The notes under the pieces: generated by a model | What the model was told of the DNA's origin: nothing | Databases searched by the model: none | What the model saw: only the letters and a program-made list of their open reading frames with translations | Shown here: one piece after another, positions 19,337 to 52,540 of the stretch | How the letters are laid out: each line of letters opens with the position of its first letter | How positions within the stretch are numbered: the first letter of the stretch is position 1 | Source of the DNA: Spirochaetia bacterium | Lineage (GTDB): Bacteria > Spirochaetota > Spirochaetia > UBA9216 | Assembly (NCBI GenBank): GCA_963677925.2 | Contig: CAXXYH010000003.1 | Span: 1,696,001-1,760,000, forward strand | Direction: 5' to 3' | Length of the DNA stretch: 64,000 nucleotides | Program-made: the position numbers and the translations under genes

Positions 19337-19364
19337 GTCTTTGTTTTTTGGCAATTTAAATAAC

Positions 19365-19524: not shown

Positions 19525-19605
19525 GCGAGAGTGGTGAAATTGGCAGACACGCCAGACTTAGGATCTGGTGCCTTTGGCGTAAGGGTTCAAGTCCCTTCTC
19601 TCGTA
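19525..19605 (+). tRNA. tRNA-Leu (TAG)
   Basis: GCGAGAG/CTCTCGT acceptor, CCAGA-CTTAGGA-TCTGG arm, long variable arm. Confidence 0.95.
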
Positions 19606-19654
19606 TATCTTTTTTTAAAGATGTGCCCATGGGTACTTAGTTTCAGAACATCAA

Positions 19655-19726
19655 GCGGGAGTAGCTCAGCGGTAGAGCTCCACCTTGCCAAGGTGGATGT
19701 CGCGGGTTCAATTCCCGTCTCCCGCT
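19655..19726 (+). tRNA. tRNA-Gly (GCC)
   Basis: GCGGGAG/CTCCCGC acceptor, CCACC-TTGCCAA-GGTGG arm, U73. Confidence 0.95.
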
Positions 19727-32917: not shown

Positions 32918-32962
32918 TCTGTCAAAACGGAGCTTCCGTTGAAACTTTATGGAGGATGTAAA

Positions 32963-34072: not shown

Positions 34073-34092
34073 TTTTCTATCATTCTTACCCA

Positions 34093-34122
34093 ATTGCGTA
34101 CCTGAACTCTCAGGTACGCAAT
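34093..34122 (+). terminator. Intercistronic stem-loop after dctP (stabiliser or attenuator)
   Basis: Perfect 13-bp stem ATTGCGTACCTGA / TCAGGTACGCAAT, 4-nt loop, no T tract. Confidence 0.7.
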
Positions 34123-34143
34123 GATTCTTAAAAAGAGGAACAT

Positions 34144-34650
34144 ATGGATACCGCTATTCGATTTTTGAAAACATTTTCCAGAAAACTGGATTATCTGGCA
34201 GCTGCAATCCTGTTTTTGAACTGCCTTCTTGTAGTTGCCAATGTTATTACACGAAGCCCGGTGCTTGAAATGCCGATTTTCGGCGTATATGAAATTGTAT
34301 GTTATTTATCGCTGTTATCAATCAGCTTTGCACTTTCAAGATGTGCCTTTGAAGGAGGGCACACAAATCTGACATTCTTACTTGAAAAACTTTCAGAGAA
34401 GAAAGCAAAAATAATCGGAATCATAACAAATATTATTGTTTTGATTAATTTCATCCTGATAGCATGGAATATGGTTCTTTATACAATCGACCGGGTTGCA
34501 GTCGGAGATGTAAGCCCGGTAATGAGGATTCCCATTGTATATGTTATGGCATTTCTTTGCCTGGGTTTTGTCCTTCTTACAATCACTCCGCTGGTAAAAA
34601 TTGTGGAAAGCATAATGGATTTAAAATTGGAAGGAGAAAATAAGCAATGA
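34144..34650 (+). CDS. dctQ: TRAP transporter small permease
   Basis: 4 TM segments, NVITR, GVYEIV, GGH. Confidence 0.88.
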   Translation: MDTAIRFLKTFSRKLDYLAAAILFLNCLLVVANVITRSPVLEMPIFGVYEIVCYLSLLSISFALSRCAFEGGHTNLTFLLEKLSEKKAKIIGIITNIIVLINFILIAWNMVLYTIDRVAVGDVSPVMRIPIVYVMAFLCLGFVLLTITPLVKIVESIMDLKLEGENKQ

Positions 34651-35960: not shown

Positions 35961-35970
35961 GGAGCAAATA

Positions 35971-36717
35971 ATGAACGATAAAATAGATTTATCAATATTC
36001 AAGGAATTTAATTTTAAATACAGTCCCGTTGGTGTCAAATTCCTTTTAACTAAACCTGTCGGAGTTGAACACATAGAAAAAAAGCTGGCATTCTGCGAGA
36101 TGCTCAAAGAGGCTCAGGAATACGACAGACCGTTTTATACAACTGCAGAAAACCATGAATGCAAAGCAGGCCCTATTCTTCTGGGAATGGAAGAGGGAGA
36201 TCCTATATTTGAAAGCGGCCAGGTTGGGCCGCGGCTCGGAGTATATGAAGATCCGAGAGCGAACAGGAAGCTGTATACCAACATGTCAAAATTTGAAAAA
36301 AACAGTGTTAAGTATGTTTTATATTCAAAACTCGATACCCTTAATTTCAACCCTGATCTGCTCATATTAACTGCCGATGCAGATCAGGCAGAGATTATAA
36401 TGAGAGCATATACCTACCGCTCCGGCGCAGCATGGAATGCAAAGGGAACAACCGTAGTAGGATGTGCATTTTTATACCTGTATCCGTATTTCAGCGGAGA
36501 GCTGAACATGATGGTCACGGGTCTGCATCATGGAATGAAAGCAAGAAAACTGTTCCCGCCGGGATGGCTCTTTTTGTCGATTCCCTACAATGCAATACCT
36601 GAAGTCACAGAAAACCTGAAAACCATAGAATGGGATCTTCCTCAATACTCCTGGGGAAAGGAAAACCATCTCAAACGAATGCAGGAAATCGTCGCTGAAG
36701 TTAAAGAGGAGCTTTAA
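35971..36717 (+). CDS. DUF169-family protein
   Basis: PVGVKF, AFCEM, HECKAGPILLG, PDLLI pattern. Confidence 0.7.
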   Translation: MNDKIDLSIFKEFNFKYSPVGVKFLLTKPVGVEHIEKKLAFCEMLKEAQEYDRPFYTTAENHECKAGPILLGMEEGDPIFESGQVGPRLGVYEDPRANRKLYTNMSKFEKNSVKYVLYSKLDTLNFNPDLLILTADADQAEIIMRAYTYRSGAAWNAKGTTVVGCAFLYLYPYFSGELNMMVTGLHHGMKARKLFPPGWLFLSIPYNAIPEVTENLKTIEWDLPQYSWGKENHLKRMQEIVAEVKEEL

Positions 36718-38499: not shown

Positions 38500-39093
38500 A
38501 TGGAACTACTGCTTGCAACAAACAATCAGCATAAAAAACACGAACTTTCACAGATCCTCAGCGGTCATAAAATTATAACCCCTGATGAGATTGGAATAGA
38601 CTTTGACTGCGACGAAACAGGGACGACCTTTCTGGCGAATTCTCTTCTAAAAGCTGAAACCCTGTTCAAATTAGCCGGAAGGCCGATAATTGCCGATGAT
38701 TCCGGTCTATGTGTTGACAGCCTAGGCGGTGAACCTGGAATATATTCAGCACGCTACGGAAGCAGCGGTGGTCCAGACCTTTCAAGTGAGGACCGAAACC
38801 TGTATCTGCTTGATAAAATGAAGCATCTGGAAACAACTGCGGAGAGAACCGCTCATTTTGTATGCTGTATGAGTCTTATAATTGATGAATACCGTGTGTA
38901 TACGGTACAGGAGTCGGTTGACGGAAGTATAACCTTTGAACCGGCAGGCTGCGGAGGCTTCGGTTATGATCCCGTCTTTTTCCTGCCCCGTTACGGAATG
39001 ACGGTAGCAGAAATAGGCGAAGCTGAAAAGAATAAAATAAGCCATCGGGGCAGAGCTGCTTCCAGACTGGCAAAACTAATAATTGGAGAATAA
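38500..39093 (+). CDS. rdgB: Non-canonical purine NTP pyrophosphatase (Ham1/RdgB)
   Basis: ATNNQHK, ADDSGL, PGIYSARY, GFGYDPVF, KNKISHR. Confidence 0.95.
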   Translation: MELLLATNNQHKKHELSQILSGHKIITPDEIGIDFDCDETGTTFLANSLLKAETLFKLAGRPIIADDSGLCVDSLGGEPGIYSARYGSSGGPDLSSEDRNLYLLDKMKHLETTAERTAHFVCCMSLIIDEYRVYTVQESVDGSITFEPAGCGGFGYDPVFFLPRYGMTVAEIGEAEKNKISHRGRAASRLAKLIIGE

Positions 39094-39094
39094 T

Positions 39095-40888
39095 ATGAGT
39101 AAAATACCGGAAAGACATGAAGTAGATGATAAAGACAAATGGGATCTTTCAGGTTTATATAAAACAGAAGAAGACTGGGAGGCTGATCTAAAGGCTTTTC
39201 AGAAAATGATACCCGGAATAGAAAAATTCAGGGGGACCCTGGGGGACTCCGCTGAAAAGCTCAAGGAATGCCTTGATTATATGAATGGATTTGAGCTGAT
39301 GGAAGAAAGACTCGGATCCTATGCCCATCTGAGACTCAACGAGGATGAAGGAAACAGCAGCGGACAGGAGCGGTTTTCAAGATTCATGTCTCTTGCGGCA
39401 CAGGCCTCAGCTGCTGCCAGTTATCAGACCCCGGAGATACAGGCGGTTTCCGAAGATAAAATGAAATCCTTTATGGCATCCCCCCTGCTCTCGGAATATT
39501 CTATTATGCTGAACAAGATCCTCCGGTACAGACCTCATATCCTGTCCGAGAAGGAAGAGAAGCTGATAGCCATGCAGGCAGAGGCGAATCAGACTGCTTC
39601 AAGGACATTTTCATCACTGACCAATGTCGATATGTCTTTTGGAAATATAAAGATTGAAGAGGGAGAAATTCCCCTCACACAGTCAACATTCGGCTCCTTC
39701 CTGATAAACCCCGACAGGGAAATCAGAAAGCAGGCATATTTTCAGTTCTACTCCGGCTTTGAATCTCATAAAAACACACTTTCAACTCTCTATGCAGGAA
39801 ATGTTCATCTGGACATATACAAATCACGCATACGCAATTACAGTTCCTCAAGAGCCGCAGCCCTCTTCCCGGACAAGGTTGAAGAAACCGTTTATGACAA
39901 CCTTCTGAGCACCATAGGCGAAAATCTCCCGGCCCTTCACCGGTATTACGATCTGCGGCGCCGTGCGCTTGGCCTTGAGAAGCTCAGCCACTATGACGTC
40001 TATGTTCCGCTTGTAAAGGATATAAAGGTAAAGCATAGCTATGATGAAGCTGTTGAAGTAATAATCAAAGCATTGGAACCGATGGGTGAAGAGTACTGCA
40101 GTACGCTCGAGAACGGACTCAGGAGCGGGTGGGTTGATCGCTATGAGAACAAGGGAAAACGCTCCGGAGCCTTTTCCGCAGGGTCCTACATCGGCGATCC
40201 ATATATCCTGATGAACTTCAAGGAAGACGTTCTTCGAGATGTGTTCACACTTGCCCATGAGGGCGGACACTCGATGCATTCCTGGTACAGTGTCAGAAAC
40301 AACCCATTCCAGAATTACAGCTATACAATATTTGAGGCTGAAGTAGCATCTACCTTCAACGAACAGCTGCTTGCAAAATATCTTTTCGAAAGAGCGGAGT
40401 CCGATGAAATGAAGGCCTACCTGATTGGAAAACAGGTTGATGATATTATTGCAACAATATTCAGACAGACCATGTTTGCCGAATTTGAACATCTTGCCCA
40501 TAAGATGGTTGAAGAAGGCCAGCCTTTAAGTGTTGAATCGGTAAGAAAACTCTACAGAAGCCTGCTGGAGAAATACTTCGGGCCTGATGTTGAACTGTTC
40601 GCAGAAAGTGATCTTGAAGGACTCAGAATCCCCCATTTCTACAGGGCTTTCTATGTTTACAAGTATGCTACCGGTCTTGCTGCCGCCATAGCGCTGTCAA
40701 CGAAGGTTCTTAACGGTACTGAACTTGATCGTGACCAGTACCTCTCATTTCTCAAATCAGGAGGGTCGAAATATCCACTTGAATCTCTTGCTGCGGCAGG
40801 AGTGGATATGAGCAGTCCTGAACCGGTACAGGCGGCAATGAAGCGCTTCGGAGAGCTTTGCAGTCAACTTGAGGGGCTGATCAAATGA
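39095..40888 (+). CDS. pepF: Oligoendopeptidase F (M3B)
   Basis: KWDLS, GKRSGAFS, TLAHEGGHSMH, AEVASTFNE, RIPHFY, YVYKYATG. Confidence 0.95.
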   Translation: MSKIPERHEVDDKDKWDLSGLYKTEEDWEADLKAFQKMIPGIEKFRGTLGDSAEKLKECLDYMNGFELMEERLGSYAHLRLNEDEGNSSGQERFSRFMSLAAQASAAASYQTPEIQAVSEDKMKSFMASPLLSEYSIMLNKILRYRPHILSEKEEKLIAMQAEANQTASRTFSSLTNVDMSFGNIKIEEGEIPLTQSTFGSFLINPDREIRKQAYFQFYSGFESHKNTLSTLYAGNVHLDIYKSRIRNYSSSRAAALFPDKVEETVYDNLLSTIGENLPALHRYYDLRRRALGLEKLSHYDVYVPLVKDIKVKHSYDEAVEVIIKALEPMGEEYCSTLENGLRSGWVDRYENKGKRSGAFSAGSYIGDPYILMNFKEDVLRDVFTLAHEGGHSMHSWYSVRNNPFQNYSYTIFEAEVASTFNEQLLAKYLFERAESDEMKAYLIGKQVDDIIATIFRQTMFAEFEHLAHKMVEEGQPLSVESVRKLYRSLLEKYFGPDVELFAESDLEGLRIPHFYRAFYVYKYATGLAAAIALSTKVLNGTELDRDQYLSFLKSGGSKYPLESLAAAGVDMSSPEPVQAAMKRFGELCSQLEGLIK

Positions 40889-41430
40889 ACTGCCTCAACT
40901 GCAGCTCCAAGGCATGCAAATCCGACGGACGCGACTGCAACGGAGCCCACGACAGCATAGTTAAAGAATATAAAAAAGACGGCATTCCCGAGTTTTACGA
41001 GAATGCCGATAAACTCGTTGCCGGAGGAAGAGCCGGCAGCCTCTCAAGACTTGATGAAGTAATTGAATTTTCAAATCTTCAGGGGTGGAAGAAAATAGCA
41101 CTGGCCTACTGTTTTTCCATGGAAAAGGAAGCTCTGAAACTTTCAGGGATACTGAAGGAGAAGGGGCTGAAACCTAGTTCTTTCCGCTGTACTGTTAACG
41201 GAATTAAGGAATCTGAGATAAGCGATAATCTTAAAGGCGGCGTCAACTGCAATCCTATAGGACAGGCTGAGGCGATTAACCAGAGCGATGCGGATCTTGT
41301 AATCGAGATGGGACTCTGTCTTGGCCATGATATCCTGTTTCATCAGTATCTGAAAAAACCGCTTACAGTTCTTGCTGTTAAGGACAGGCTATATAAGCAT
41401 AATCCGCTTCAGGCATTAGTTGAAGACTAA
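40885..41430 (+). CDS. DUF1847-family putative metal-binding protein
   Basis: CLNC..C..C, SRLDE, CNPIGQA, GLCLGHD, VLAVKDR, HNP. Confidence 0.82.
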   Translation: MNCLNCSSKACKSDGRDCNGAHDSIVKEYKKDGIPEFYENADKLVAGGRAGSLSRLDEVIEFSNLQGWKKIALAYCFSMEKEALKLSGILKEKGLKPSSFRCTVNGIKESEISDNLKGGVNCNPIGQAEAINQSDADLVIEMGLCLGHDILFHQYLKKPLTVLAVKDRLYKHNPLQALVED

Positions 41431-43808: not shown

Positions 43809-43902
43809 AAATATCTCAAATAGCCCGGAACAGGTCTTATTTGAGATATTTCCTCCTCTTTTTTCTCCTGGCCCCTGCCGGCAACAGCAGGGGCTTTTTT
43901 TA
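43809..43902. terminator. Two hairpins between convergent msmX and RACo genes
   Basis: 14-bp inverted repeat AAATATCTCAAATA (43809-43851) and GCCCCTGC/GCAGGGGC plus T run (43871-43902). Confidence 0.7.
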
Positions 43903-45726
43903 CAGCTTGTTGAAATACATAGCGTTCATGTATTCCATTTGAAACTGGGCACTTGTTGAGAGTTCAATGTAATCAACATGCCTTGCGGCATCAGACATAT
44001 CAGCAATGACATCAGCAGATAGAGCTGCCATTACCGCACCCTTACCTGCAGTGTTTCCGGCTGCTGCTATCTTTGTTTCAAGGGCTGCCGGAACAAGTCC
44101 GATAACCGCGGCATTATGCCTGTCTAGGGCAGCTCCGAAACCGCCGGCCAGATGCACACATTCAACATCATCAACTGTTTTTCCGGTTTCATGAAGCAGC
44201 GTTGCAATTCCGGCAGCTATTGCAGCTTTGGCCATCTGAATTTCCCTTATGTCCTTCTGAGTGAGCGTTATTCCGCCGGAAACTTTCAGTTCGGGACCGT
44301 CATCTTTTATAATGAGCGGTCCGGAAGTATCTGCCTCCTCGGTCATAATCCTTCCGGTCTCATCAATGTATCCCTGCTGCAGGAAAACAGAAACCGCATC
44401 AACAATTCCTGAACCGCAGATTCCTGCCGGAGTATCTCCGCCAATCACTTCAAAGGAAATATCCTTTTCAGTGGCGGCATATACCCTGTTGATTGCGCCG
44501 GGAACTCCGCCCATTCCGCATGAGATATTAGCGCCCTCAAGAGCCGGGCCGGCTGCAGTTGAACATGCCGTCATACCGCTTTTATTGCCGAGAACAATCT
44601 CACCATTTGTACCTATATCGATTAAAAGAGAGAGTTTATCAGTTCTATGCATTCCGGTGGCAATGATGCCTGCTGTGATGTCTGCACCTACATAGGAGGC
44701 AATAGAGGGAAGCAGTGCTATTGTACATCCCTCGTGAAGACTCAGCCCCAGCTCCGGCGCTGAAACAGCAAGCAGAGAGGTATCAACCGGAATAAAGGGA
44801 GCGGCAGCTATACCTGCGGGATCCAGACCGGCGAAAAGATGCATCATGGTAGTGTTGCCCGCTATTGTAACAAGATCGATTGCAGAAGATTCAATTCCGG
44901 CTTTTAAACAAAGCTTATCGACCATGGTTGATATCTGATTTGTTATTTTCTGCTGCAGAATATCAAGGTTTCCTGATTCCTGCATTGTGAACTCGATTCT
45001 GGAGATAACATCCCCTCCGAAACCCTTCTGAGAATTCAGTGAGGAGACAAAGTCGATCACCTGACCGCGCTCTTCTCCGCTGATGCAGACAAGATATGAA
45101 ACTACTGTAGTGGTTCCGATATCAACTGCAACAGCGTATGAAACCTCAGCAGTATTTTTATCTGACACTGAAACAATTTTACCGAAACAGGTTTTTACCG
45201 AGATTTCATACTCGTATTTTTTCAGAAGTGCAGGCAGGCACCGTATCATCCACAATGGAATATCCGAACTTTCAGGAAGGCCTGATTTAATTCTTTCAAA
45301 GTCGGAACGCTGATCCTCGATTGAAGGCTTATCAAGATTCAGACTGATTAGAGAAACAGGCGCCTCCGAACCTATCAGATCCGGATTAAAAGCCTGTCCG
45401 TCAAAACCTGTCAGAATAGATGCTGATTTCCCTGCGGAAGAAACTGTGATATCAATATCACTCTCCGGGAAAATGCGGCAGGCCAGTCTTGTTCCAGCGC
45501 TTATTTCACTTTCGGTGAGGAATTTGTTTTCTACAGAATCAGGCTTATACTGCCTGGTAAGTTCAGGTCTTACTAGTTTTACCCTGCACTTTCCGCAGGT
45601 ACCCTTGCCACCGCAGGGTGCATCATAGCCTTCAATACCGGCCCTGTTTACTGCATCAAGAAGACTTTCACCTTTTTTGATTTCCGCGGCCTTAATTTCA
45701 CCGTCAGTATGTATCTTAATTTTCAT
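43900..45726 (-). CDS. Reductive activator of corrinoid proteins (RACo / ASKHA ATPase with [2Fe-2S])
   Basis: CGGKGTCGKC, RLAC, DIGTTT, GGDVISRI, DIGTNGE, AAGPALEG, GICGSG, LAGGFG. Confidence 0.92.
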   Translation of the reverse strand: MKIKIHTDGEIKAAEIKKGESLLDAVNRAGIEGYDAPCGGKGTCGKCRVKLVRPELTRQYKPDSVENKFLTESEISAGTRLACRIFPESDIDITVSSAGKSASILTGFDGQAFNPDLIGSEAPVSLISLNLDKPSIEDQRSDFERIKSGLPESSDIPLWMIRCLPALLKKYEYEISVKTCFGKIVSVSDKNTAEVSYAVAVDIGTTTVVSYLVCISGEERGQVIDFVSSLNSQKGFGGDVISRIEFTMQESGNLDILQQKITNQISTMVDKLCLKAGIESSAIDLVTIAGNTTMMHLFAGLDPAGIAAAPFIPVDTSLLAVSAPELGLSLHEGCTIALLPSIASYVGADITAGIIATGMHRTDKLSLLIDIGTNGEIVLGNKSGMTACSTAAGPALEGANISCGMGGVPGAINRVYAATEKDISFEVIGGDTPAGICGSGIVDAVSVFLQQGYIDETGRIMTEEADTSGPLIIKDDGPELKVSGGITLTQKDIREIQMAKAAIAAGIATLLHETGKTVDDVECVHLAGGFGAALDRHNAAVIGLVPAALETKIAAAGNTAGKGAVMAALSADVIADMSDAARHVDYIELSTSAQFQMEYMNAMYFNKL

Positions 45727-46664
45727 ATTTTTATTTCCGCTCCGCTTAGTTCTTCCGCAGATTTTTTAATAAGTTCTAAAACAGTATCATCTGCAGGAGA
45801 AATGATTACAAGCCCTTCACGCTCTGAACCGGAGACATGCCTGCAGTACTGCCCGTCTGAGGCCACGGAGATATCTGCCTGCAGATATCCGTCTTCACTT
45901 TTAAGCCAGCCTTTGATCCTGTAAACGCTGCTGCGGATGCTGTCGATGAAGCGGTTCAAATCCTTTTCATCTGCAGTACTTGAACAGGTAAGCAGTACGG
46001 GAACCGGTCTGCCCTGCCTTCCCCAGCCCGCAAATCGTCTTTCAAACGGTTTAACAGTCTCAATCTCGGGCATCTGCTCAAGCAATGAAGAATCGGCTTC
46101 TCCAAAACTTGTTCGAATAATATCGGCCTCGGGGTTAACGGTAAGAACATCCGACTCGCACAGGCTTGTTTCCATTTTACCTGCCAGGTCTGTTTTATTT
46201 AGAATCACCTTGTTGCTGTAGGCTATCTGTTCATTCACAGCCAGCACAGCCTGAGAGAGTCTGCGGTATGTTGAAGCATCAACAAGGCTAATCATTCCGT
46301 GATATTTAATACGGCCGTTTGAGACTGCTTTAGCTTCATTAATAATTTCAAGAAGCGGTGAAGGCTTAGCCAGTCCGGAAGTTTCTACAAGCAGGTAATC
46401 GATATCAAACCGGGAGAAACTGCCCACGGCCGAAACAAAGGAGCCGGCAAGACAGGAACAGAAGATCTGCCCGTTATTCAGCTCAAGGATACTGTCTTTA
46501 TCCTGAGCACCCAGAAGCTTCGAATCTACTCCGATGCTGCCGAAGTCGTTGACAATAATGCCGAACTTTACGTCCGGCATTATTTTGAAGATGTTATTTA
46601 AAAATGTGGTTTTACCTGATCCCAGAAATCCTGAGATCAGTATTAATTTTATGCTGTCACTCAA
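45723..46664 (-). CDS. CobW/COG0523-like G3E GTPase
   Basis: GFLGSGKTT, VNDFG, NGQIFCSC, ETSGLA, NKTD, RIKG. Confidence 0.88.
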   Translation of the reverse strand: MSDSIKLILISGFLGSGKTTFLNNIFKIMPDVKFGIIVNDFGSIGVDSKLLGAQDKDSILELNNGQIFCSCLAGSFVSAVGSFSRFDIDYLLVETSGLAKPSPLLEIINEAKAVSNGRIKYHGMISLVDASTYRRLSQAVLAVNEQIAYSNKVILNKTDLAGKMETSLCESDVLTVNPEADIIRTSFGEADSSLLEQMPEIETVKPFERRFAGWGRQGRPVPVLLTCSSTADEKDLNRFIDSIRSSVYRIKGWLKSEDGYLQADISVASDGQYCRHVSGSEREGLVIISPADDTVLELIKKSAEELSGAEIKI

Positions 46665-48010
46665 AGGTACTTTTCAACCTCAGCTATAAATTCATTTCTG
46701 CTTGGAATTATAGATGAGTATTTAAGTTCGCCATTGATGTAGATACTGGGAAGCTGCTGTACACCCATTGCTTTGCATCGGGCAATGTTCTGAGGCTCTG
46801 TATATTTATACTCTATCATGTCTACCTTTTCTCCGTAATGTGACTTGATATCATCAGCGGAGGCCTTCATATATGTACAGGCTGCGCAGGTAATTGAATC
46901 GAGTGTGAAAACTTCGATAAAGGGTCTTTCAAGATTTGGATAATCGGGAAGTTCGCCTTCAAATTCTATTTCACTGCCCTCATAATTTGCAACCATTTCA
47001 CGGATCTGTTCAGTCTGATGCACAGCCTGCTCTATTCCGATTGTATTCTCGATTGGGATATCGTATGGCATATCGCAGCCGGGAGCGACAATCAGGAGGT
47101 CCTGGTTATCAAGACTGTCTATTAAATCGATGGTAGTTTTCATGTTGTCCTGCTGTGTTCCGAATAGCATAACGGAAGTAAGCGGAATATTACCGCCGAT
47201 AACAACATTATACTTATCAGTAACTTTTTTTGCTGCGGCAAGATTAACATTCTCATCCACCGAAATACTGTCAGGAGCAGTCTTGCACATGGGTTCGATA
47301 TTTGCCGTAGCGTTTCCGCATACAAAGAAGGATGAAAACGCACCCTTGCTTCTTATATGTTCAAAAACCTCAGAAAACGGGCCGTCCATGAACTCAGCGA
47401 AGTGATCAGGTGAAATCTGGGAGATAAGAGGGTCGACAACCGCAATAATGTCCATTCCTGCATCGGCATAGAAATCAGTCATTGCGTTTGCAACTTTCGT
47501 TGTATATTCCATGAGTGCTTTTACATGCTCCGGATTCATTACCATATCCATAAAAATATTGGTTCCCCGAAGATGAGACGCCAGAGTAAAGGGGCCTGTA
47601 ATAAGACCGTAAAGTGCGGTATCAGCTCCTACTTTTTCCTTCATGGCTTTCATGGCTTTTACAGCCATAGGGATACGTCCGTCCTCAGCCTTGGGCATAG
47701 TATCGGGAATTTCTTCGGTATCGGCAAGCGGATGAGATGCCACAGTAGGCGGAGCATCCTCAGACCATACCAGATTACATCCGAGTATTTCAGCTTCAAT
47801 CTGAAGATCAAACATTACCGGCTGTCCGTCCGGCTTGTAGATTTTATTAACCTCAAGAAGAGATTCAATCAGTTTATCAGCATCAGTAGAAACTTCACGT
47901 GCTGTGTACCCTTTTAGTTTACCTGCATGTACACCGGCAAAGGGGACCCATGGCACCTCGCCTGTTTTTTCCTTTCTAAGTACTGCCAGTAATTTTTCTT
48001 TTCCAGTCAT
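46661..48010 (-). CDS. UroD/MtaA-CmuA-family methyltransferase with a C-terminal thioredoxin-like CxxC domain
   Basis: EAEILGC, GPFTLASHLRG, VVDP, FFVCG, GGNI, APGCDMP; C-terminus IEVFTLDSITCAACTYM...GVQQLPSIYINGE. Confidence 0.85.
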   Translation of the reverse strand: MTGKEKLLAVLRKEKTGEVPWVPFAGVHAGKLKGYTAREVSTDADKLIESLLEVNKIYKPDGQPVMFDLQIEAEILGCNLVWSEDAPPTVASHPLADTEEIPDTMPKAEDGRIPMAVKAMKAMKEKVGADTALYGLITGPFTLASHLRGTNIFMDMVMNPEHVKALMEYTTKVANAMTDFYADAGMDIIAVVDPLISQISPDHFAEFMDGPFSEVFEHIRSKGAFSSFFVCGNATANIEPMCKTAPDSISVDENVNLAAAKKVTDKYNVVIGGNIPLTSVMLFGTQQDNMKTTIDLIDSLDNQDLLIVAPGCDMPYDIPIENTIGIEQAVHQTEQIREMVANYEGSEIEFEGELPDYPNLERPFIEVFTLDSITCAACTYMKASADDIKSHYGEKVDMIEYKYTEPQNIARCKAMGVQQLPSIYINGELKYSSIIPSRNEFIAEVEKYL

Positions 48011-48077
48011 ATATCCTCCGGGTTATTATTGCAATTTAATAGCTTGATATAATTCTAAGACCCTTTCAGGCTGGAGG

Positions 48078-48108
48078 ATTGTAGTAATTAACAAATTTTT
48101 GCATTTTT
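48078..48108 (-). promoter_or_regulatory. Candidate activator site, copy 1 (upstream of the methyltransferase)
   Basis: 23/31 identical to 49043-49073; shared core TTTTGCATTTTT. Confidence 0.5.
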
Positions 48109-48124
48109 ACACACGTCCGAATAC

Positions 48125-48163
48125 AAAAAAAAAGAGGATATCCAAAGCTTGTTGGATATCCTC
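48125..48163 (-). terminator. Intrinsic terminator after the corrinoid protein gene
   Basis: 12-bp stem GAGGATATCCAA / TTGGATATCCTC followed by a T run on the minus strand. Confidence 0.85.
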
Positions 48164-48207
48164 CGTATTTTTATAAAAGAAATTTGCCAATGCAGGCTGT
48201 TTTTGGA

Positions 48208-48843
48208 TTATTTTGTACAAACCTCAAGAGCTTTTTCTGAAGCTGTAGCTGCATCTGCTGTATAGATATCAGCACCGATACTTTCACAGAATTTCTCTGT
48301 TACCGGAGCTCCGCCGACCATAATGGTAACCTTGTCTCTGATACCTGCGTCTACAGCGGCCTTAACTACGTTTTCCATCTGAGTCATTGTTGTAGTAAGA
48401 AGAGCTGAACATGCAATAATATTTGCATTTTCATTCTGTGCGGCTTCAATGAATTTCTCAGCCGATACATCAGCTCCGAGATCCACTACAGTTAGACCCT
48501 TGCCTTCAAACATAATCTTCACAAGGTTTTTACCGATGTCATGAAGGTCACCCTTTACTGTTCCGATAACAACCTTTCCGATTTCTTCGACATCATCGCC
48601 GACCATTGCGGGCTTAAGAACTTCTAGTCCGAAATTCATTGCTCTTGCTGCAATAAGTACTTCAGGTACAAAAACTTCATTGTTTTTGAATTTTACTCCT
48701 ACAATATTCATCGCGGAAAGAAGTCCCTTTTCTAGGATTTCCTTGGGAGCGATGCCCTCTGCAAGAGCGTCTGCACAAAGCTGCTTAACCTCATCAGCCT
48801 TGCCTTTCTGCATCAGTTCTGAAATTTTCTCAAAATCTGCCAT
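48208..48843 (-). CDS. Methyltransferase cognate corrinoid (B12-binding) protein
   Basis: FVPEVLIAARAM cap domain, GTVKGDLHDIGKNLV (DxHxxG), SALLTTT, VGGAP. Confidence 0.95.
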   Translation of the reverse strand: MADFEKISELMQKGKADEVKQLCADALAEGIAPKEILEKGLLSAMNIVGVKFKNNEVFVPEVLIAARAMNFGLEVLKPAMVGDDVEEIGKVVIGTVKGDLHDIGKNLVKIMFEGKGLTVVDLGADVSAEKFIEAAQNENANIIACSALLTTTMTQMENVVKAAVDAGIRDKVTIMVGGAPVTEKFCESIGADIYTADAATASEKALEVCTK

Positions 48844-48860
48844 CCTGTTCCTCTCTTTCT

Positions 48861-48996
48861 CTCATCTCCATCCCTGTACGCGAGGTCTGAGTATGACATA
48901 ATGCCGAGATGAAGTATTCTGGCTTGGTCTGTTTCCGGACCTTCACAGTGACGCGCTCGCGGAAGATTTTCACTTCGCTTCCTTCAGTTCGGTCAT
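48861..48996 (-). ncRNA. Cobalamin riboswitch (compact, class-II-like)
   Basis: Minus strand reads GGAA, T-loop AAGTGAAAATCTT, CGCG loop-CACTGTGA, B12 box AAGCCAGAATAC, and hairpin CCT-CGCGTAC-AGG able to kiss the CGCG loop; directly upstream of a B12-binding protein. Confidence 0.78.
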
Positions 48997-49042
48997 TTTA
49001 GATTTTTCTGATATTATTATCCTATCTGCGGCTTAACACCGT

Positions 49043-49073
49043 ATTGAATTATTTTGTTAAATTTTGCATTTTT
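49043..49073 (-). promoter_or_regulatory. Candidate activator site, copy 2 (upstream of the riboswitch/corrinoid gene)
   Basis: 23/31 identical to 48078-48108. Confidence 0.5.
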
Positions 49074-49090
49074 TTATGTATGCAGAATTC

Positions 49091-50395
49091 TTAATGTACT
49101 TCGTGATTATTCAGCTTTATCTTTCCGCGGTTTTCCCGGAATTTCCCCGGGGAGGTACCTGTAAATTTCTTGAATACCTTTGAGAAGTAACTCTGATCTT
49201 CAAATCCGCACATACCGGCTATATCAATCAGCGGAACATCGGAATTAATCAGGTAGTTCTTGCTTTTTTCAACACGGACCTGATTCAGATAGGTGTTGAA
49301 ATTGAGATCAAGCTCCTTTTTGAAGACCTTGCTGAGATAGGACGGGGAAAGATTTACATGTGCAGCAGTTTCTTCAAGCGAAATCTTGTCGCGGTAATGT
49401 TCCCGTATATACTGCATTGCCCCGTGAATTGCATCGGCATGCTTAATTTCACGCATATCAAAAACCAGTTCAGAGAATCTGTGAATTACCCTTGAAAGCC
49501 AGCCGGCTATGCCTTCCACACTGGTGAACGAGTTGATACGGCTGAGATACTGATAATTCATGCCGAAGATCTGCTCGGCATCTGCACCGCCTCTAACGGC
49601 TGCTCTGGATAGCAGTACTATCAGCTCAAGTACACGGGCTCTGATTACCTTTATGTCACCGCCGGCCGTAAAGAACACGTTTCCAAGTATTTCATTCAGG
49701 ATAGCCTTTGCGTTTGAGGCCTCTCCGTTTTCGATACAGTCTATAAGTTCCGATTCCTTCGCGAAGGGATACCGGGAAATCTCCGCGCTGGAATGTTCCA
49801 TAGTCTTGATATACTGAATATATTCAGAGATTTCCTTCTGCTGGTCGGAGTTTTCCTGCTTCATCTCCAGAGTCAGGGAATCCATCTCGGAAAGACTTGC
49901 TGTAACATAGAATAGCAGCTCGGAAAGACTGCGGGAGCGTTCTGTTGTAATTGAGGGTATATCGGATGCAAGCTTCATCAGACTGAAGATTTCCGATGCC
50001 GGAAGATTCTTGCCGGATATAAGGTCGTTTCTTATAAAATCATCGGAATCTATGATAAGAGCAGGACCGCAGACCATTGAACCGACCTGGATTCCGCCTT
50101 TAAAAAGCGGAGATGTCCAGTGCAGAAGAGACATCGGACAGAAAAACATATATTTTCCGCCGAAACGCTCGGCCTGATAGCTTCCGTAGCGATGAACCTG
50201 ACTGCAGTCCAGCCTGTCCTGAGGAAAAACATGCTCAATACGATTGCAGAAACTGAAGCCCGGGGAGTTTTCATCAGGTTCGGGACCTATCCGTCTGCCC
50301 TCAGTATCGATAACAAAACAGCTTATACCGGTAGATTCAGTATAGTGAACAGCGGCTGAAACAGCTTTTTCCAGAAACAAGTCTTCCATTATCAC
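49091..50395 (-). CDS. PocR-domain AraC-family transcriptional regulator
   Basis: PocR Cys pattern (FSFC, DCSQVH, MFFCPMSL, CGP); LSPSYLSKVFK, GFEDQSYFSKVFK. Confidence 0.9.
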   Translation of the reverse strand: MIMEDLFLEKAVSAAVHYTESTGISCFVIDTEGRRIGPEPDENSPGFSFCNRIEHVFPQDRLDCSQVHRYGSYQAERFGGKYMFFCPMSLLHWTSPLFKGGIQVGSMVCGPALIIDSDDFIRNDLISGKNLPASEIFSLMKLASDIPSITTERSRSLSELLFYVTASLSEMDSLTLEMKQENSDQQKEISEYIQYIKTMEHSSAEISRYPFAKESELIDCIENGEASNAKAILNEILGNVFFTAGGDIKVIRARVLELIVLLSRAAVRGGADAEQIFGMNYQYLSRINSFTSVEGIAGWLSRVIHRFSELVFDMREIKHADAIHGAMQYIREHYRDKISLEETAAHVNLSPSYLSKVFKKELDLNFNTYLNQVRVEKSKNYLINSDVPLIDIAGMCGFEDQSYFSKVFKKFTGTSPGKFRENRGKIKLNNHEVH

Positions 50396-52002
50396 AAGTG
50401 CAGAACCTCTTCCATAACAGCCATTATACTGTATCCTCTGCTTTTTTCTATAACTGATCCGCTGAGAAGAAAAGGCGGGATTTTTACAATTGCCCCGGAA
50501 TCTGCAGCCTCATCATCCTTAGGACGCTTCATAATCAGTTTTTTAAGCAGATTATTTTTTATTTCAGGATAAAATTTTACAATCGGCACTTTAATACCGG
50601 CTTTATCTGCAGCAGCCTTTACGGCATCCGTGAGAAATCCGCAGCTGTCAATAAGACCGTTTTCACTGGCAGCGCTGCCCGACCAGATTCGGCCCATCCC
50701 CAGCGAATCAATTTCATCTGCAGTCTTATTTCGGGCCTTTGCAACCATCGATGTGAACTGGTTGTACATTGATTCAATTTCAGCATCAAGCATTTTAATC
50801 TCATCATCAGTCAGACTTCTCATTGGAGAACCAGTATCGGAATACTCCCCGAATTTTATTAAATCTCCTGAGACTCCAAGCTTTTCCAGCAGGCGGTACC
50901 AGGCCATATAGATGCTGATAACACCTATTGAGCCTGTAAGGCTGGTATTGCAGGCAATAGTCTGTTCTCCGCAGCAGGATATCCAGTATCCGCCCGAACC
51001 GGCGACCTCGCCCATAGAAATATAAAGCGGTTTCTTTTCGGCCAGAAGCTTAAGCGCACTGCGGATATCTTCTGAGGCATAAGGAGAACCTCCCCCGGAG
51101 TTGATCCTGAGAACTACAGCCTTCACCGAGGAATCATCTTTAAGTTTATAGATATGAGGAATAAAGGAGTTTGAACCGACAGCATTGCCTATAAGCAGCT
51201 CACGCCTGGATTTTCCGTCGACTATTGCACCTTCAAATACAAGAACAGCTACCCTGCCTTTTTTGGCGGTAAAAAGTGCGGATTTCATAACAGCATCGGT
51301 TAATGAGACCTTTTTGATTTTATCCTTCTTAAAGCCCGACTCTATGTCGATCAGGGTGGATACCGAACTTACCCATCCTGCCCCGAGGGCGTCTTCTGCC
51401 TGAAAAGTTTCACCGTCAAGCATGGAGTCAAGAGCGTCATCCTTCTTTCCATAGCCTGAGATAATTCCGGATTTCAGCTCGTCAAGAACAGTTTTAAAGT
51501 AAAGTTCATACTGCTCCCTGTTATGCTCGTCCAGAGATTCCTTTGAAAACTGATCTCCGGCGCTCTTATATTTTCCACGCCGGATTACCCGTGCTTCAAT
51601 TCCTGCTTTTTCAAAGAGTTTTTTCAGAAAGGTGAAAGACCAGGCAAGCCCCTGGAATTTAACTGTTCCGACAGGATGGATAATCCTGGTGGTACAGACC
51701 GAGGCAAGATAAAGCTGAACCGGCCCGTATACCGGTGAATAAAAAATGACGTCCTTACCAGCGTCAGTCAGCCTTTTGAGACATTCACGTATTTCCTCAA
51801 GACCGGCGAAGAGTCCGGTCCTGAAATCTGTTCGGCAGTCTACAAGAACTTTCTGAACAGATTTCTTTCTAAGAATATTGGCGGTTCGTATGTAAAAGCG
51901 GTCAAACCGAAAACCTTCATCCGTTCCTATCGATAACAGGTCAGTTCCCTGGTTTCCGGTTTCATGATACTGTCCGGAAAGTACAAGTTTAGTGTATTTC
52001 AT
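50392..52002 (-). CDS. sppA: Signal peptide peptidase SppA (S49, tandem-domain type)
   Basis: GKYKSAG, AVVLRINSGGGS, GEVAGSGGYWI, TGSIGV, GRIWSG. Confidence 0.88.
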   Translation of the reverse strand: MKYTKLVLSGQYHETGNQGTDLLSIGTDEGFRFDRFYIRTANILRKKSVQKVLVDCRTDFRTGLFAGLEEIRECLKRLTDAGKDVIFYSPVYGPVQLYLASVCTTRIIHPVGTVKFQGLAWSFTFLKKLFEKAGIEARVIRRGKYKSAGDQFSKESLDEHNREQYELYFKTVLDELKSGIISGYGKKDDALDSMLDGETFQAEDALGAGWVSSVSTLIDIESGFKKDKIKKVSLTDAVMKSALFTAKKGRVAVLVFEGAIVDGKSRRELLIGNAVGSNSFIPHIYKLKDDSSVKAVVLRINSGGGSPYASEDIRSALKLLAEKKPLYISMGEVAGSGGYWISCCGEQTIACNTSLTGSIGVISIYMAWYRLLEKLGVSGDLIKFGEYSDTGSPMRSLTDDEIKMLDAEIESMYNQFTSMVAKARNKTADEIDSLGMGRIWSGSAASENGLIDSCGFLTDAVKAAADKAGIKVPIVKFYPEIKNNLLKKLIMKRPKDDEAADSGAIVKIPPFLLSGSVIEKSRGYSIMAVMEEVLHL

Positions 52003-52540
52003 CTTTCTCCATTATACCGGCGTACATTGTGAGTGGTAATTCTGCTTCAACAGGGATCTCTTCACCGAAAGCATCGTCTGTATTCAATGAATCTGTTTGA
52101 GCGGTCATCACACTTTCCATATCTTCAGTATCTTCATTCGGACCGTTCTCTACAGGAAAGGTTTCGTTGCTTACATAATATAGAAACTTCCAGGCATTTT
52201 CACCTGCTTTGACAAGGTTAATTGTGAACTCCCTGCCGTCAAGAAAAACACAGGTCAGCTTCAGGTTATCAAAGTCCAGTTCTTCGACGGAATAAAGAGC
52301 CCTGTACTCCAAATCTCCGTAGAGGATCGTAATAAAACTGCCGTCAAGAATTTCTATCGAGGTTATTCCGCTGTACGGGAATGAGTAATAAGCTTCGGGA
52401 GCAGTAAGCAGTCCGTCAGGCTGCTCACAGATATAAAAATTAAGGGTCCATTTTCCGGTAAGATCGTCTTTCACAGCAGCTTCAGCAAATAACGGAAGCG
52501 CAGACAGCAATATGATAGAGACAAGTAATAACCTTTTCAT
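51989..52540 (-). CDS. Secreted acidic hypothetical protein
   Basis: Signal peptide (LPLFA), GAGGA ribosome-binding site, overlaps the sppA start. Confidence 0.7.
   Translation of the reverse strand: MKRLLLVSIILLSALPLFAEAAVKDDLTGKWTLNFYICEQPDGLLTAPEAYYSFPYSGITSIEILDGSFITILYGDLEYRALYSVEELDFDNLKLTCVFLDGREFTINLVKAGENAWKFLYYVSNETFPVENGPNEDTEDMESVMTAQTDSLNTDDAFGEEIPVEAELPLTMYAGIMEKDEIH

Follow-up and report, generated by a model that had tools for sequence, protein, structure and literature searches.

Among published systems, the module described here is closest to type 1 mlp gene clusters but does not share their defining features. Type 1 mlp clusters are proposed S/Se-methyl systems that are widespread in anaerobes (Kountz & Balskus, bioRxiv 2023, PMC10418091), and by the definition given there they contain at least one Mlp2 together with Mlp3 and usually three UroD genes. 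The same source describes a His-Cys-Cys zinc sphere in Mlp proteins, save for several Mlp1 proteins, and states that retained Cys zinc ligands mark S/Se-methyltransferases while O-demethylases lose them; its text says nothing relevant about thioredoxin, PocR, or COG0523. Marispirochaeta associata is among the type 1 mlp cluster hosts in its supplement, so corrinoid methyltransferase clusters are not entirely unreported in spirochaetes, in which a first-pass annotation of the DNA studied here had called methylotrophy of this kind little described. In MtaA/MtbA-type MT2 enzymes the acceptor is the thiol CoM (PMC8318568), and MtsA is a precedent for one enzyme that performs both half-reactions (PMC8630106). 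COG0523 genes have been described adjoining mtaA, mtaB, mtaC, and ramM (PMC2770081), the PocR sensor is known also from the mec corrinoid cassette, within the sensor kinase MecA (PMC9768040), and some UroD-superfamily MT1 enzymes function without zinc, as described for CdmB (PMC13222342).

The window, the whole stretch of DNA that was analyzed, comprised 64,000 nt from a Spirochaetia bacterium (GCA_963677925.2, contig CAXXYH010000003.1, 1,696,001 to 1,760,000 of the forward strand). On its minus strand lay, in order, a PocR-AraC regulator, a cobalamin riboswitch, a corrinoid protein, a URO-D/MtaA-like methyltransferase, a CobW/COG0523 GTPase, and a RACo activase. Pfam domains and a riboswitch search agreed with the first-pass annotation on all six elements, their common strand, and their coordinates, and the overlapping stop and start codons that it had reported for the last three genes were found at 46661-46664 (methyltransferase/CobW) and 45723-45726 (CobW/RACo). 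The absence of an MT1 and of a pterin-binding THF methyltransferase, previously noted for the locus, held across the entire 64-kb window, as Pfam searches of 55 non-overlapping ORFs, each 100 aa or longer, detected no MttB, MtaB, MtmB, Pterin_bind, MtrH, or further URO-D. The corrinoid gene and the methyltransferase-CobW-RACo genes formed two units, each with an operator-like repeat upstream and with a strong terminator-like hairpin between them.

The methyltransferase gene (46661-48010, minus strand) encodes a URO-D domain (residues 3-331; Pfam E = 9.4e-54) followed by a thioredoxin-fold domain (about residues 364-446). The AF2 model of the full-length protein (pLDDT 93.6, pTM 0.88) had MtaA as its best fold match (4ay7; TM 0.88, rmsd 2.3 Å), which was also the closest solved structure by sequence (E = 1.5e-23, 22% identity). 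The best NCBIfam models were MtaA, MtaA/CmuA, and MtbA, and all scored below cut-off (MtaA, 142.8 bits versus 400; MtbA, 126.1 versus 600; TIGR01463, 142.8 versus 235.4). Orthology to a characterized MT1 or MT2 was rejected on the basis of these scores and the low identity to MtaA, in keeping with the earlier suggestion that the system may be uncharacterized. The MtaA zinc motif His-x-Cys…Cys is replaced by Phe-x-Cys…Cys in every family member examined, and thus zinc binding is only putative. Both motif cysteines, C231 and C312, are invariant, which by the ligand-retention rule of PMC10418091 argues for an S/Se methyltransferase, and E253 and D313 covary with the His-to-Phe change. We conclude that the single enzyme of the module is best read as an MtaA/MtbA/MtsA-like zinc-thiolate methyltransferase.

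The first-pass annotation had called the enzyme fused, a description borne out by a match of residues 372-441 to Thioredoxin_3 slightly below the cut-off (23.1 versus 24.8 bits) and by the thioredoxin fold in the model. Modeled alone, the domain (pLDDT 95.1) matched thioredoxins, with profile matches to 1nho (E = 2.6e-7), 1fo5 (E = 1.7e-4), and 1ilo (E = 4.6e-3). A CxxC at the N terminus of helix 1 (CAAC, residues 375-378) and a cis-Pro-type LPS motif (P421) are both invariant, and the CxxC is kept in 34/34 locus-derived and 31/31 database family members, as well as in three of four more divergent fused representatives. It had been proposed earlier that a protein thiol, which here would be a cysteine of the thioredoxin domain, serves as methyl acceptor or donor. 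The invariance of the CxxC would suit such a relay, as would the fixed domain arrangement implied by the full-length pTM, but a CxxC with cis-Pro geometry is the textbook mark of dithiol-disulfide redox chemistry, a methylated cysteine would require its own turnover, and no precedent was found in the literature examined. Moreover, unfused close relatives (P0135, P0138, and others; 37 to 45% identity) keep the F-x-C…C-D active-site pattern without the thioredoxin domain, which argues that the domain is accessory rather than core. We consider a protein-thiol methyl relay highly improbable and a redox-maintenance or substrate-handling role of the CAAC domain at least as likely.

Species genomes yielded at least 549 matches to the fused methyltransferase family, at 58 to 83% identity and across seven phyla. 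Neighborhoods were surveyed at 80 related loci, 43 of which had at least 6 kb on each side (full-flank loci), by greedy ORF calls with one representative per cluster; 26 + 223 neighbor proteins were scanned, and 97 proteins of 100 to 214 aa and 19 longer than 700 aa were skipped. In 29 of the 43 full-flank loci this survey, suggested by the first-pass annotation as a check, turned up no further gene of a corrinoid methyltransferase family within 6 kb, and in the remaining 14 at least one, indicating that the absence of a partner methyltransferase is a family trait and not peculiar to the genome of the window. No Pterin_bind, MtaB, or MtrH protein was detected among the neighbors scanned. We conclude that the five-gene module is tightly conserved and recurs in hundreds of anaerobe genomes.

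Second methyltransferases, where present, bear on which half-reaction the fused enzyme catalyzes. An MttB-family gene lay within 6 kb in 5 of the 80 loci (beside a BCCT transporter in two, L027 and L034), MtmB was found in L077, and a divergent UroD-like protein was encoded just 5′ of the corrinoid gene in L019, L073, and L062; ordinary UroD paralogues near 13 loci were compatible with either MT1 or MT2. MttB, MtmB, and the divergent UroD proteins belong to families in which the characterized members are donor-specific MT1 enzymes, which would place the fused enzyme on the acceptor side, and its closest fold and NCBIfam relatives, the MtaA-type CoM methyltransferases, point the same way. Moreover, in L016, L017, and L044 the sole corrinoid protein was the MttB-adjacent one, so that the fused enzyme appears in the slot of the THF methyltransferase of known bacterial systems. 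Counting against an acceptor-side role, only a few loci are MttB-linked, and these have corrinoid proteins of another subfamily (43 to 44% identity to that of the window in these three loci, and 58 to 92% for corrinoid genes in the usual position). URO-D also includes the MT1 enzymes OdmB, VdmB, MtvB, CmuA, and CdmB, and thus the fold alone cannot fix the side of the reaction.

Alternatively, the fused enzyme could be a substrate-specific MT1 that loads the corrinoid protein from a PocR-sensed methyl compound, such as a methyl thioether, methyl halide, O-methyl sugar, or methoxy compound, with a MetH-like, AcsE/MtgA-like, or homocysteine-binding MT2 encoded elsewhere. Many MT1 enzymes are described within the UroD superfamily (PMC13222342, PMC8630106), and retention of a small-molecule sensor regulator, a PocR homologue within 6 kb in 34 of the 43 full-flank loci, fits substrate induction. 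A homocysteine-binding S-methyl_trans gene lies inside the L080 cluster, and a MetH-activation-domain-like gene after CobW in 11 of 43 loci gives a split-MetH flavor in which UroD would stand in for the folate-binding module. Several loci have sugar transporters and glycosidases nearby, including a GH67 alpha-glucuronidase gene in L060, but the neighborhoods, although often sugar-related, are heterogeneous, and such genes are common in the host genomes. A donor-side enzyme would leave the MttB- and MtmB-linked loci with two donor enzymes and no acceptor enzyme, the 80 loci show no adjacent MT2 except the single S-methyl_trans case, and both soft Cys ligands are kept, unlike in O-demethylases as described in PMC10418091. 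We regard the donor-side assignment as rather unlikely.

A further alternative is that the module demethylates methylselenol, dimethylselenide, or methylated arsenic for recovery or detoxification, with the CAAC domain binding the product. Use of methyl selenide has been linked to type 1 mlp clusters, which have similar parts, and in vitro ClMlp2 transfers methyl groups to selenide (PMC10418091). DUF2284, encoded at 8 of the 43 full-flank loci and missing from the module in the window, is joined to an arsenite methyltransferase in one of the selenoprotein families tabulated in PMC13188914, and in L003 the module has a tRNA-Sec gene 9 kb away. The NCBIfam models "HUIPC motif thioredoxin-like (seleno)protein" (E = 2.5e-4) and "CobW-related selenoprotein" (E = 1.2e-11) matched the window proteins weakly and far under the family cut-offs, however, and the family members examined had no Sec in place of Cys. 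The scanned neighbors included no selD, selA, selB, or ars genes, and a dedicated AraC-type activator sits poorly with salvage of a trace element; taken together, selenium or metalloid demethylation is improbable. Among the same neighbors no thiol-cofactor biosynthesis or sulfur/selenium gene was consistently adjacent, which counts also against the favored acceptor-side reading.

The remaining genes encode a methyl carrier and two putative maintenance factors. The corrinoid protein (48208-48843, minus strand; 211 aa) matched B12-binding (E = 6e-27) and B12-binding_2 (E = 3.8e-21) and is of the His-on DxHxxG type, the motif reading GDLHDIG; its top NCBIfam model was MtgC_2 (213.3 bits, cut-off 370), and its gene lay within 6 kb of the methyltransferase in 40 of the 43 full-flank loci. 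The RACo-type ATP-dependent reductive activase of corrinoid proteins (43900-45726, minus strand; 608 aa) comprises an N-terminal [2Fe-2S] ferredoxin domain (Fer2), RACo_linker, Raco_middle, and RACo_C_ter by Pfam, scored 412.6 bits against AcsV (cut-off 800), and was encoded within 6 kb in 29 of 43. The CobW/COG0523-type G3E GTPase (45723-46664, minus strand; 313 aa; Pfam cobW E = 9.5e-39), with the P-loop GSGKTT and an invariant C69-x-C71, was present in 39 of 43, and among the 69 loci with sufficient flank it lay directly 3′ of the methyltransferase gene and in the same orientation in 53; one record (P0272) is a UroD-CobW fusion. A predicted methyltransferase-CobW complex scored 0.57 (best control, 0.01), with the runs agreeing in at least 70% of contacts and a partner pLDDT of at least 72, and lends the pairing weak support: of 157 solved complexes 116 attain the mark applied, as do 2 of 215 mismatched pairs, counts that are approximate here given our own alignments, and at scores of 0.60 or below it is attained by 18 of the 157 and both passing mismatches. 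Gene overlap, adjacency, the fusion, the predicted complex, and the precedent of PMC2770081 together argue for a link between CobW and the methyltransferase.

The regulator (49091-50395, minus strand; 434 aa) combines a PocR sensor (residues 18-171; E = 6.4e-16) with an AraC-type helix-turn-helix (HTH_18 E = 5.9e-24; HTH_AraC E = 6.9e-20). Two copies of a 31-nt direct repeat, 74% identical, were found on the minus strand, copy 1 (49043-49073) 5′ of the riboswitch and corrinoid gene and copy 2 (48078-48108) 5′ of the methyltransferase-CobW-RACo unit. The repeat core AAAATGCAAAAWTT occurred three times in the 64 kb (0.26 expected; three copies in none of 100 shuffles), and the copy 1 block is unchanged in an alignment of the window with L001 to L004, in which a GATAAT-like −10 element follows about 20 nt 3′. 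The PocR-AraC protein probably binds this repeat, and the duplicated operator together with the PocR sensor of the mec cassette argues for its control of the module. In the gap between the corrinoid and methyltransferase genes, an intrinsic-terminator-like hairpin (48124-48164, minus strand) has a 13-bp stem (48164-48133) and a T9 tail, TTTTTTTTGT. The B12 riboswitch of the first-pass annotation fared less evenly: in the corrinoid gene 5′ leader an AdoCbl-type aptamer (RF01482; 48861-49009, minus strand) scored 34.2 bits in a 1.4-kb search (E = 3.7e-4), below the gathering score of 50, and no riboswitch in the window reached gathering, but a cobalamin-clan riboswitch exceeded it at the homologous position in 8 of 21 related loci scanned (L001, L002, L003, L006, L013, L015, L021, and L022; none of seven Bacillota-type loci), and the aptamer core is fully conserved in a five-genome alignment.

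We tentatively favor, at somewhat less than even confidence, a self-contained and self-maintaining module that encodes its own maintenance factors and is built around a methylcorrinoid:thiol/selenol methyltransferase, one acting on the acceptor side and possibly bifunctional. The corrinoid protein would alternate between Co(I) and CH3-Co(III), and the URO-D domain would shuttle methyl groups between it and a small sulfur or selenium nucleophile, candidates being sulfide, selenide, methanethiol, homocysteine, or another low-molecular-weight thiol. The hosts of the module are bacteria, which are not known as CoM producers. The fused enzyme would be an MT2, possibly performing both half-reactions as MtsA does, and the donor-side methyltransferase would lie outside the conserved unit, either plugged in locally (MttB, MtmB, or divergent UroD) or encoded elsewhere. 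RACo would re-reduce Co(II) to Co(I) at the expense of ATP, the COG0523 GTPase may load metal into the altered zinc site, and the thioredoxin domain may hold the thiol substrate, or else the catalytic or ligand cysteines, in the reduced state. PocR-AraC would activate the two similar promoters upon a small-molecule signal, and the riboswitch would tie corrinoid-protein synthesis to corrinoid supply. Domain assignments, folds, conservation, gene order, and the lack of a pterin-type methyltransferase among the scanned neighbors were observed directly; we infer the direction of methyl transfer, the S/Se nature of the substrate, and what CobW, the thioredoxin domain, PocR, and the riboswitch do.

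Compared with the three-component bacterial demethylases (MtgB/MtgC/MtgA, the O-demethylases OdmABCD/MtvABC, and Cdm), the module shares a corrinoid protein, a RACo-type activase, and, in the five loci noted above, a nearby MttB-family gene; the terminal enzyme there is a pterin-binding methylcorrinoid:THF methyltransferase, whereas none was found in the window or among the scanned neighbors of the 80 loci. From type 1 mlp clusters, as published, the module differs in its one UroD gene, Phe-Cys-Cys motif, fused thioredoxin, and CobW neighbor. The domain resembles the small methanogen thioredoxins Mt0807 (1nho), MJ0307 (1fo5), and MtH895 (1ilo), all of Thioredoxin_3, in its minimal fold, CxxC, and cis-Pro-type motif but differs in its fusion to a methyltransferase and its CAAC sequence. 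With the soluble methanogen methylcobamide:CoM methyltransferases MtaA, MtbA, and bifunctional MtsA the module has in common the URO-D TIM-barrel fold, both zinc-motif cysteines, a separate MtgC/MttC-like corrinoid protein with an ATP-dependent activase, and COG0523 neighbors of the kind described in PMC2770081. Unlike those systems, it is under PocR-AraC and riboswitch control, and its methyltransferase departs from MtaA in its low identity, Phe for His, covarying E253/D313, and C-terminal thioredoxin fusion.

The module lies on the minus strand at 43900 to 50395 and comprises five genes, the domains of which agree with the first-pass annotation made from sequence alone. A regulator with a PocR sensor and an AraC-type helix-turn-helix, recognized by its domain content (49091 to 50395), is followed by a 211-aa corrinoid protein, in which a GDLHDIG His-on motif accompanies the B12-binding and cap domains (48208 to 48843), a 449-aa methyltransferase of the URO-D family (46661 to 48010; Pfam URO-D E 9.4e-54 over residues 3 to 331), a cobW-domain GTPase (45723 to 46664; PF02492, E 9.5e-39), and a RACo-type activase that carries a [2Fe-2S] domain at its N terminus (43900 to 45726; Pfam). 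Four-base overlaps join the methyltransferase gene to the GTPase gene and the GTPase gene to the activase gene. The [2Fe-2S] ferredoxin, linker, middle, and ASKHA C-terminal domains of the activase all exceed their Pfam cut-offs, and its score against the AcsV equivalog model, 412.6 bits, lies below the cut-off of 800. The canonical metal motif of COG0523/CobW proteins is CxCC. That motif is absent from the window GTPase, which reads FCSCLAG with only C69 and C71 invariant; the P-loop GSGKTT is present and is invariant across the family. Pfam scanning of 55 non-overlapping open reading frames in the 64-kb window detected no MttB, MtaB, MtmB, pterin-binding, MtrH, or second URO-D gene, which bears out the earlier claim that only one methyltransferase is encoded here.

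Directly upstream of the regulator, an S49 (SppA-like) peptidase gene and a gene for a 183-aa protein without a family match (50392 to 52540, minus strand) meet the regulator gene with a 4-nt overlap; the two are kept only in the clade of the window (related loci L001 to L004). Elsewhere in the window, a DUF1847 gene encoding a predicted metal-binding protein (40885 to 41430, plus strand) overlaps by 4 nt the stop of an M3 oligopeptidase gene (39083 to 40888), and the same family occurs near the module in L002 and L048. Five tRNA genes are clustered at 19161 to 19726. A sensor kinase and an AraC-type response regulator are encoded upstream of a TRAP transporter, which a DUF169 gene follows (32939 to 36717). 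Two [FeFe]-hydrogenase-like genes are located at 7369 to 8679 and 61059 to 63916, one of which adjoins a NuoF-like gene in a bifurcating-type arrangement.

In a whole-window scan, no riboswitch reached the Rfam gathering score. A local search found an AdoCbl-type aptamer at 48861 to 49009 (minus strand) with 34.2 bits against a gathering score of 50 (E 3.7e-4), and a riboswitch of the cobalamin clan (CL00101) reached the gathering score upstream of the corrinoid protein gene in 8 of the 21 related loci scanned (L001, L002, L003, L006, L013, L015, L021, and L022). These were 8 of 14 Spirochaetota-type loci versus 0 of 7 Bacillota-type loci. Moreover, the aptamer core was invariant in an alignment of the window leader with those of four relatives (L001 to L004). 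Of the B12 riboswitch reported at first pass, the weak aptamer here and the gathering-level matches in relatives hold up and a gathering-level score in the window does not; we accept the predicted element as genuine and as a feature of Spirochaetota-type loci. The minimum free energy fold of the leader was no better than those of shuffled sequences (z -0.03), and the Sphaerochaeta-type leader contained no terminator. The element precedes the gene for a B12-using carrier, not one for B12 synthesis or transport or for a B12-independent isozyme.

A 13-bp hairpin with nine T's lies between the corrinoid protein and methyltransferase genes (48164 to 48133), and thus the riboswitch probably governs the corrinoid protein gene alone. 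A 31-nt direct repeat is found in two copies on the minus strand, one before the riboswitch-corrinoid protein unit (49043 to 49073) and one before the methyltransferase-GTPase-activase unit (48078 to 48108), and its core occurs 3 times in 64 kb versus 0.26 times expected. In five genomes, the upstream copy does not vary, and it lies approximately 20 nt ahead of a GATAAT box; such a layout is that of an activator-dependent promoter. Judged from its sequence and position, the repeat is the probable operator to which the PocR-AraC regulator would bind. The mec dichloromethane cassette is likewise under the control of a PocR sensor (PMC9768040).

For the neighborhood survey, open reading frames were called in the best 80 related loci of a species-genome collection (L001 to L080), proteins were clustered by BLASTP, and core genes were confirmed by tblastn; 43 loci had flanks of 6 kb or more on each side. 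At a distance of up to 6 kb from the methyltransferase gene, the corrinoid protein was encoded in 40 of the 43 full-flank loci, the CobW-like GTPase in 39/43, the PocR-AraC regulator in 34/43, and the RACo-type activase in 29/43, and all four partners were present anywhere in the locus in 23/43. Of 69 loci with sufficient flank, 53 had the GTPase gene immediately after the methyltransferase gene and on its strand; the corrinoid protein gene was directly upstream in 42 of 78. Other neighbors within 6 kb were a MetH-activation-domain-like protein (11/43), DUF2284 (8/43), a radical-SAM-like protein (5/43), and DUF1638 (5/43). A further gene of a corrinoid methyltransferase family was located within 6 kb in 14 of the 43 full-flank loci and in 20 of all 80. 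The survey suggested at first pass thus found the module recurring without a second methyltransferase in 29 of the 43 loci, and so homologous loci do not usually include a standard second one.

The second methyltransferase, where present, came from families whose characterized members are donor-specific enzymes that transfer methyl groups to the corrinoid (MT1s). Ordinary UroD paralogues (13/80 loci) and MttB family members (5/80, often with their own corrinoid protein and in some cases a BCCT transporter beside them) were found within 6 kb; the other types were an unannotated family of approximately 430 aa (c31) with weak URO-D similarity directly upstream of the corrinoid protein gene (3/80), MtmB (1/80), a UroD-B12 fusion (1/80), and a homocysteine-binding S-methyl_trans protein (1/80). 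Pfam scans of 26 cluster representatives and 223 further neighbors (one per cluster, 215 to 700 aa, within 6 kb, passing over 97 proteins of 100 to 214 aa and 19 longer than 700 aa) detected no pterin-binding domain (PF00809), MtaB, or MtrH, and PF00809 was likewise not detected in the window. In three loci (L016, L017, and L044), the sole corrinoid protein was the one adjacent to MttB, with 43 to 44% identity to that of the window; corrinoid proteins encoded in the usual position were 58 to 92% identical to it.

Several loci had further features of their own. Members of the c31 family (L019:8020-9315, L073:8035-9321, and L062) matched URO-D at a subthreshold E of 0.0017 to 0.031 and had no sequence match in the PDB, and we treat its members as candidate donor-side methyltransferases that are very divergent. 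In a locus from Anaerolineales (L080:15121-16008), a homocysteine S-methyltransferase-domain gene (PF02574, E 1.1e-77) is located inside the module beside the corrinoid protein, RACo, and DUF1638 genes, which resembles a split-MetH arrangement. In a locus from Clostridia (L060:16290-18287 and neighbors), the module is flanked by genes for a GH67 alpha-glucuronidase, for an MFS_2 transporter, and for a sugar ABC system, as well as by a second UroD gene. Near other loci, genes for sulfatase, fucosidase, GH1, and GH20 enzymes are found. Methylated sugars are a possible connection; the neighboring sugar genes were too heterogeneous to be counted as evidence. For a methyl-sugar O-demethylase, the accessible part of the literature gave a P450 sugar demethylase and no corrinoid one.

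The methyltransferase consists of two domains, a URO-D barrel (residues 3 to 331) and a thioredoxin fold (approximately residues 364 to 446). The full-length model (pLDDT 93.6, pTM 0.88) had as its best Foldseek match the methylcobalamin:CoM methyltransferase MtaA (4ay7; TM 0.88, rmsd 2.3 A, 22% identity). Scores fell below the NCBIfam cut-offs for TIGR01463 (142.8 versus 235.4), MtaA_Meth (142.8 versus 400), PRK06252 (141.9 versus 244), and MtbA (126.1 versus 600). In the C-terminal domain, CAAC (375 to 378) starts helix 1 and LPS (420 to 422) forms a cis-Pro-type loop; C375, C378, and P421 are invariant. Pfam Thioredoxin_3 scored 23.1 bits, just below its cut-off of 24.8, and a family profile of the domain matched the small methanogen thioredoxins 1nho, 1fo5, and 1ilo at E 2.6e-7 to 4.6e-3 (2.6e-7 for 1nho). 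Consistent with these matches, the domain modeled in isolation (pLDDT 95.1) matched thioredoxins at a TM of approximately 0.7. We conclude that the C-terminal domain is predicted to adopt a thioredoxin fold in which CxxC opens helix 1, with a cis-Pro loop and a putative redox role.

The zinc ligands of MtaA-type enzymes are His-x-Cys…Cys (PMC10418091, accessible text). When aligned, MtaA lHiCgn … apgCg corresponds to fFvCgn … apgCd in the window enzyme, such that the His is lost and both Cys residues are kept. The resulting motif is Phe229-x-Cys231…Cys312, and F229, C231, C312, D313, and E253 are invariant in the family. Remoter relatives that keep His229 carry Glu at 313 and one of Ala, Gly, Ser, or Gln at 253; residues 229, 253, and 313 thus covary, with Phe229/Glu253/Asp313 in the family. 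The covarying triad suggests a rebuilt metal site in which E253 may substitute for the lost His ligand. The first-pass annotation had proposed, as one of two options, a protein thiol as methyl donor or acceptor. We consider a methyl relay through a thioredoxin cysteine highly improbable, as there are unfused relatives with the same active-site pattern and the accessible portions of the literature examined held no precedent.

Going beyond domain identity, we infer tentatively, with confidence a little short of even, that the fused methyltransferase is an acceptor-side enzyme (MT2), possibly bifunctional like MtsA. This assignment follows from its nearest relatives by sequence, curated models, and structure being methylcobamide:thiol methyltransferases, from the retention of both Cys ligands, and from the donor type of the second enzymes. 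Retained Cys ligands separate S/Se-methyltransferases from O-demethylases in the superfamily, as stated in the accessible text of PMC10418091. Moreover, in the loci whose sole corrinoid protein is adjacent to MttB, the fused enzyme takes the slot held by the folate enzyme in known bacterial systems. The MttB- and MtmB-linked loci speak against the enzyme being a donor-side MT1 with its MT2 encoded elsewhere. That reading, which we consider rather unlikely, draws support from the substrate-type regulator, from MetH-activation-like and homocysteine-binding genes in part of the loci, and from the abundance of MT1s in the UroD superfamily (PMC13222342). A selenium or metalloid function is suggested by analogy with the type 1 mlp clusters and by weak matches to selenoprotein families, but no sel or ars genes were detected among the scanned neighbors, and we rate it very unlikely.

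The fused family is large. A word-indexed search returned 120 full-length proteins among the matches listed, with 61 to 99% identity, and those that were named at all were named only "uroporphyrinogen decarboxylase (family protein)." Among 1.84 billion representatives at 50% identity, the family formed one cluster plus four divergent fused representatives (28 to 39% identity), and unfused relatives began at 45 to 48% identity. The species-genome collection gave at least 549 confirmed matches, the best 80 of which (58 to 83% identity) were from Spirochaetota, Bacillota, Thermodesulfobacteriota, Chloroflexota, Bacteroidota, Victivallales, and Synergistaceae; the hosts span seven phyla and include the human-gut taxa Ruthenibacterium, Christensenella, and Bengtsoniella. 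A FastTree phylogeny of 76 sequences was largely coherent by phylum, with 9 label changes versus a minimum of 6. The window fell in a five-member clade with 100% support that also held three Spirochaetota sequences and one from the unranked "Ca. Thalassospirochaeta," and its synteny with L001 to L004 reached past the module, which marks it as spirochete DNA. In L003, from a related spirochaete, a tRNA-Sec gene (952 to 1038) lies approximately 9 kb from the module.

The methyltransferase and the CobW-like GTPase are linked by gene overlap and adjacency. A predicted complex of the two scored 0.57, versus 0.01 for the best control, with at least 70% of contacts agreeing between runs and a partner pLDDT of at least 72. 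Of 157 solved complexes, 116 reached that mark, as did 2 of 215 mismatched pairs, counts that apply only roughly because our own alignments were used; at or below 0.60, it was reached by only 18 of the 157 solved complexes and by both mismatches that passed. The modeled complex lends weak support to an association. A single 817-aa database record (P0272) is a fusion of UroD(-Trx) and CobW, which is suggestive of the same link and possibly a frameshift artifact; open reading frames of more than 470 aa in the loci were solely upstream over-extensions. In L069 (6383 to 7894), a CobW domain is fused to DUF2284, and the two fusions hint that accessory proteins act with the methyltransferase. That COG0523 genes neighbor the mta genes of methanogens was reported in 2009 (PMC2770081).

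On the acceptor-side reading, the conserved unit would form a back end that is donor-agnostic, in which RACo would maintain the cobalt, CobW would serve the altered zinc site, and the thioredoxin domain would look after the redox state of the cysteines or of the substrate. A more specific proposal, which we rate distinctly unlikely, is that the fused enzyme is a portable, folate-independent methyl sink, a methylcorrinoid:sulfide (or small thiol or selenide) methyltransferase that strips methyl groups from any donor enzyme. If so, fermenters that are neither acetogenic nor methanogenic, together with sulfate reducers, would release methyl groups as methanethiol-type volatiles, and the module would survive oxidative damage through repair by RACo (cobalt), thioredoxin (cysteines), and CobW (zinc). 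Sulfide-dependent methyl transfer has long been observed in anoxic sediments. The methyl-sink proposal would give that activity a genetic identity and, beside tetrahydrofolate (THF) and CoM, would provide a third bacterial outlet for methyl groups bound to corrinoids.

Bacterial corrinoid methyl transfer is understood to proceed from a donor enzyme to a corrinoid protein and on to a folate enzyme. The module described here is strongly conserved without a folate enzyme, and its sole MtaA-like enzyme is fused to a thioredoxin domain and altered at the metal site. If methyl groups pass to or from sulfur or selenium compounds, the module would bear on the formation of methanethiol and dimethyl sulfide, on selenium salvage, on the economy of methionine in anoxic habitats and in the gut, and on the upkeep of B12 enzymes. 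As the module is small, encodes soluble proteins, and is present in cultured strains, among them Sphaerochaeta halotolerans, Marispirochaeta aestuarii, Dethiosulfatibacter aminovorans, and Ruthenibacterium lactatiformans, the question is directly testable.

Among known systems, the MtaA/CmuA family, including MtaA and MtbA, shares the URO-D TIM-barrel fold of the window enzyme, whereas the curated scores of that enzyme lie below cut-off and its His ligand is lost. The three-component demethylases have a pterin-type THF methyltransferase, whereas none was detected in the window or among the 26 plus 223 neighbor proteins. The closest published system is type 1 mlp (PMC10418091, accessible text), which is alike in its kinds of parts, its missing folate enzyme, and its S/Se hypothesis; like type 1 mlp, the window module has a corrinoid protein together with a Ram/RACE activase, and its cluster lacks a THF methyltransferase. 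Unlike the window, with its one URO-D gene, type 1 mlp is defined by at least Mlp2 and Mlp3, that is, by two or more UroD-family genes, and the fused enzyme departs from the His-Cys-Cys rule, to which the same text records several Mlp1 exceptions. The accessible text makes no relevant mention of thioredoxin, PocR, or COG0523. Marispirochaeta associata is in the type 1 mlp host list of the supplement, in the part accessible, and thus spirochetes are not virgin ground for such clusters. No description of the UroD-thioredoxin fusion or of the five-gene set was found in literature searches outside subscription journals. We conclude that the locus is more than a chance assembly and is a widespread, uncharacterized corrinoid methyl-transfer module with a distinctive fused enzyme, for which type 1 mlp is the nearest published counterpart.
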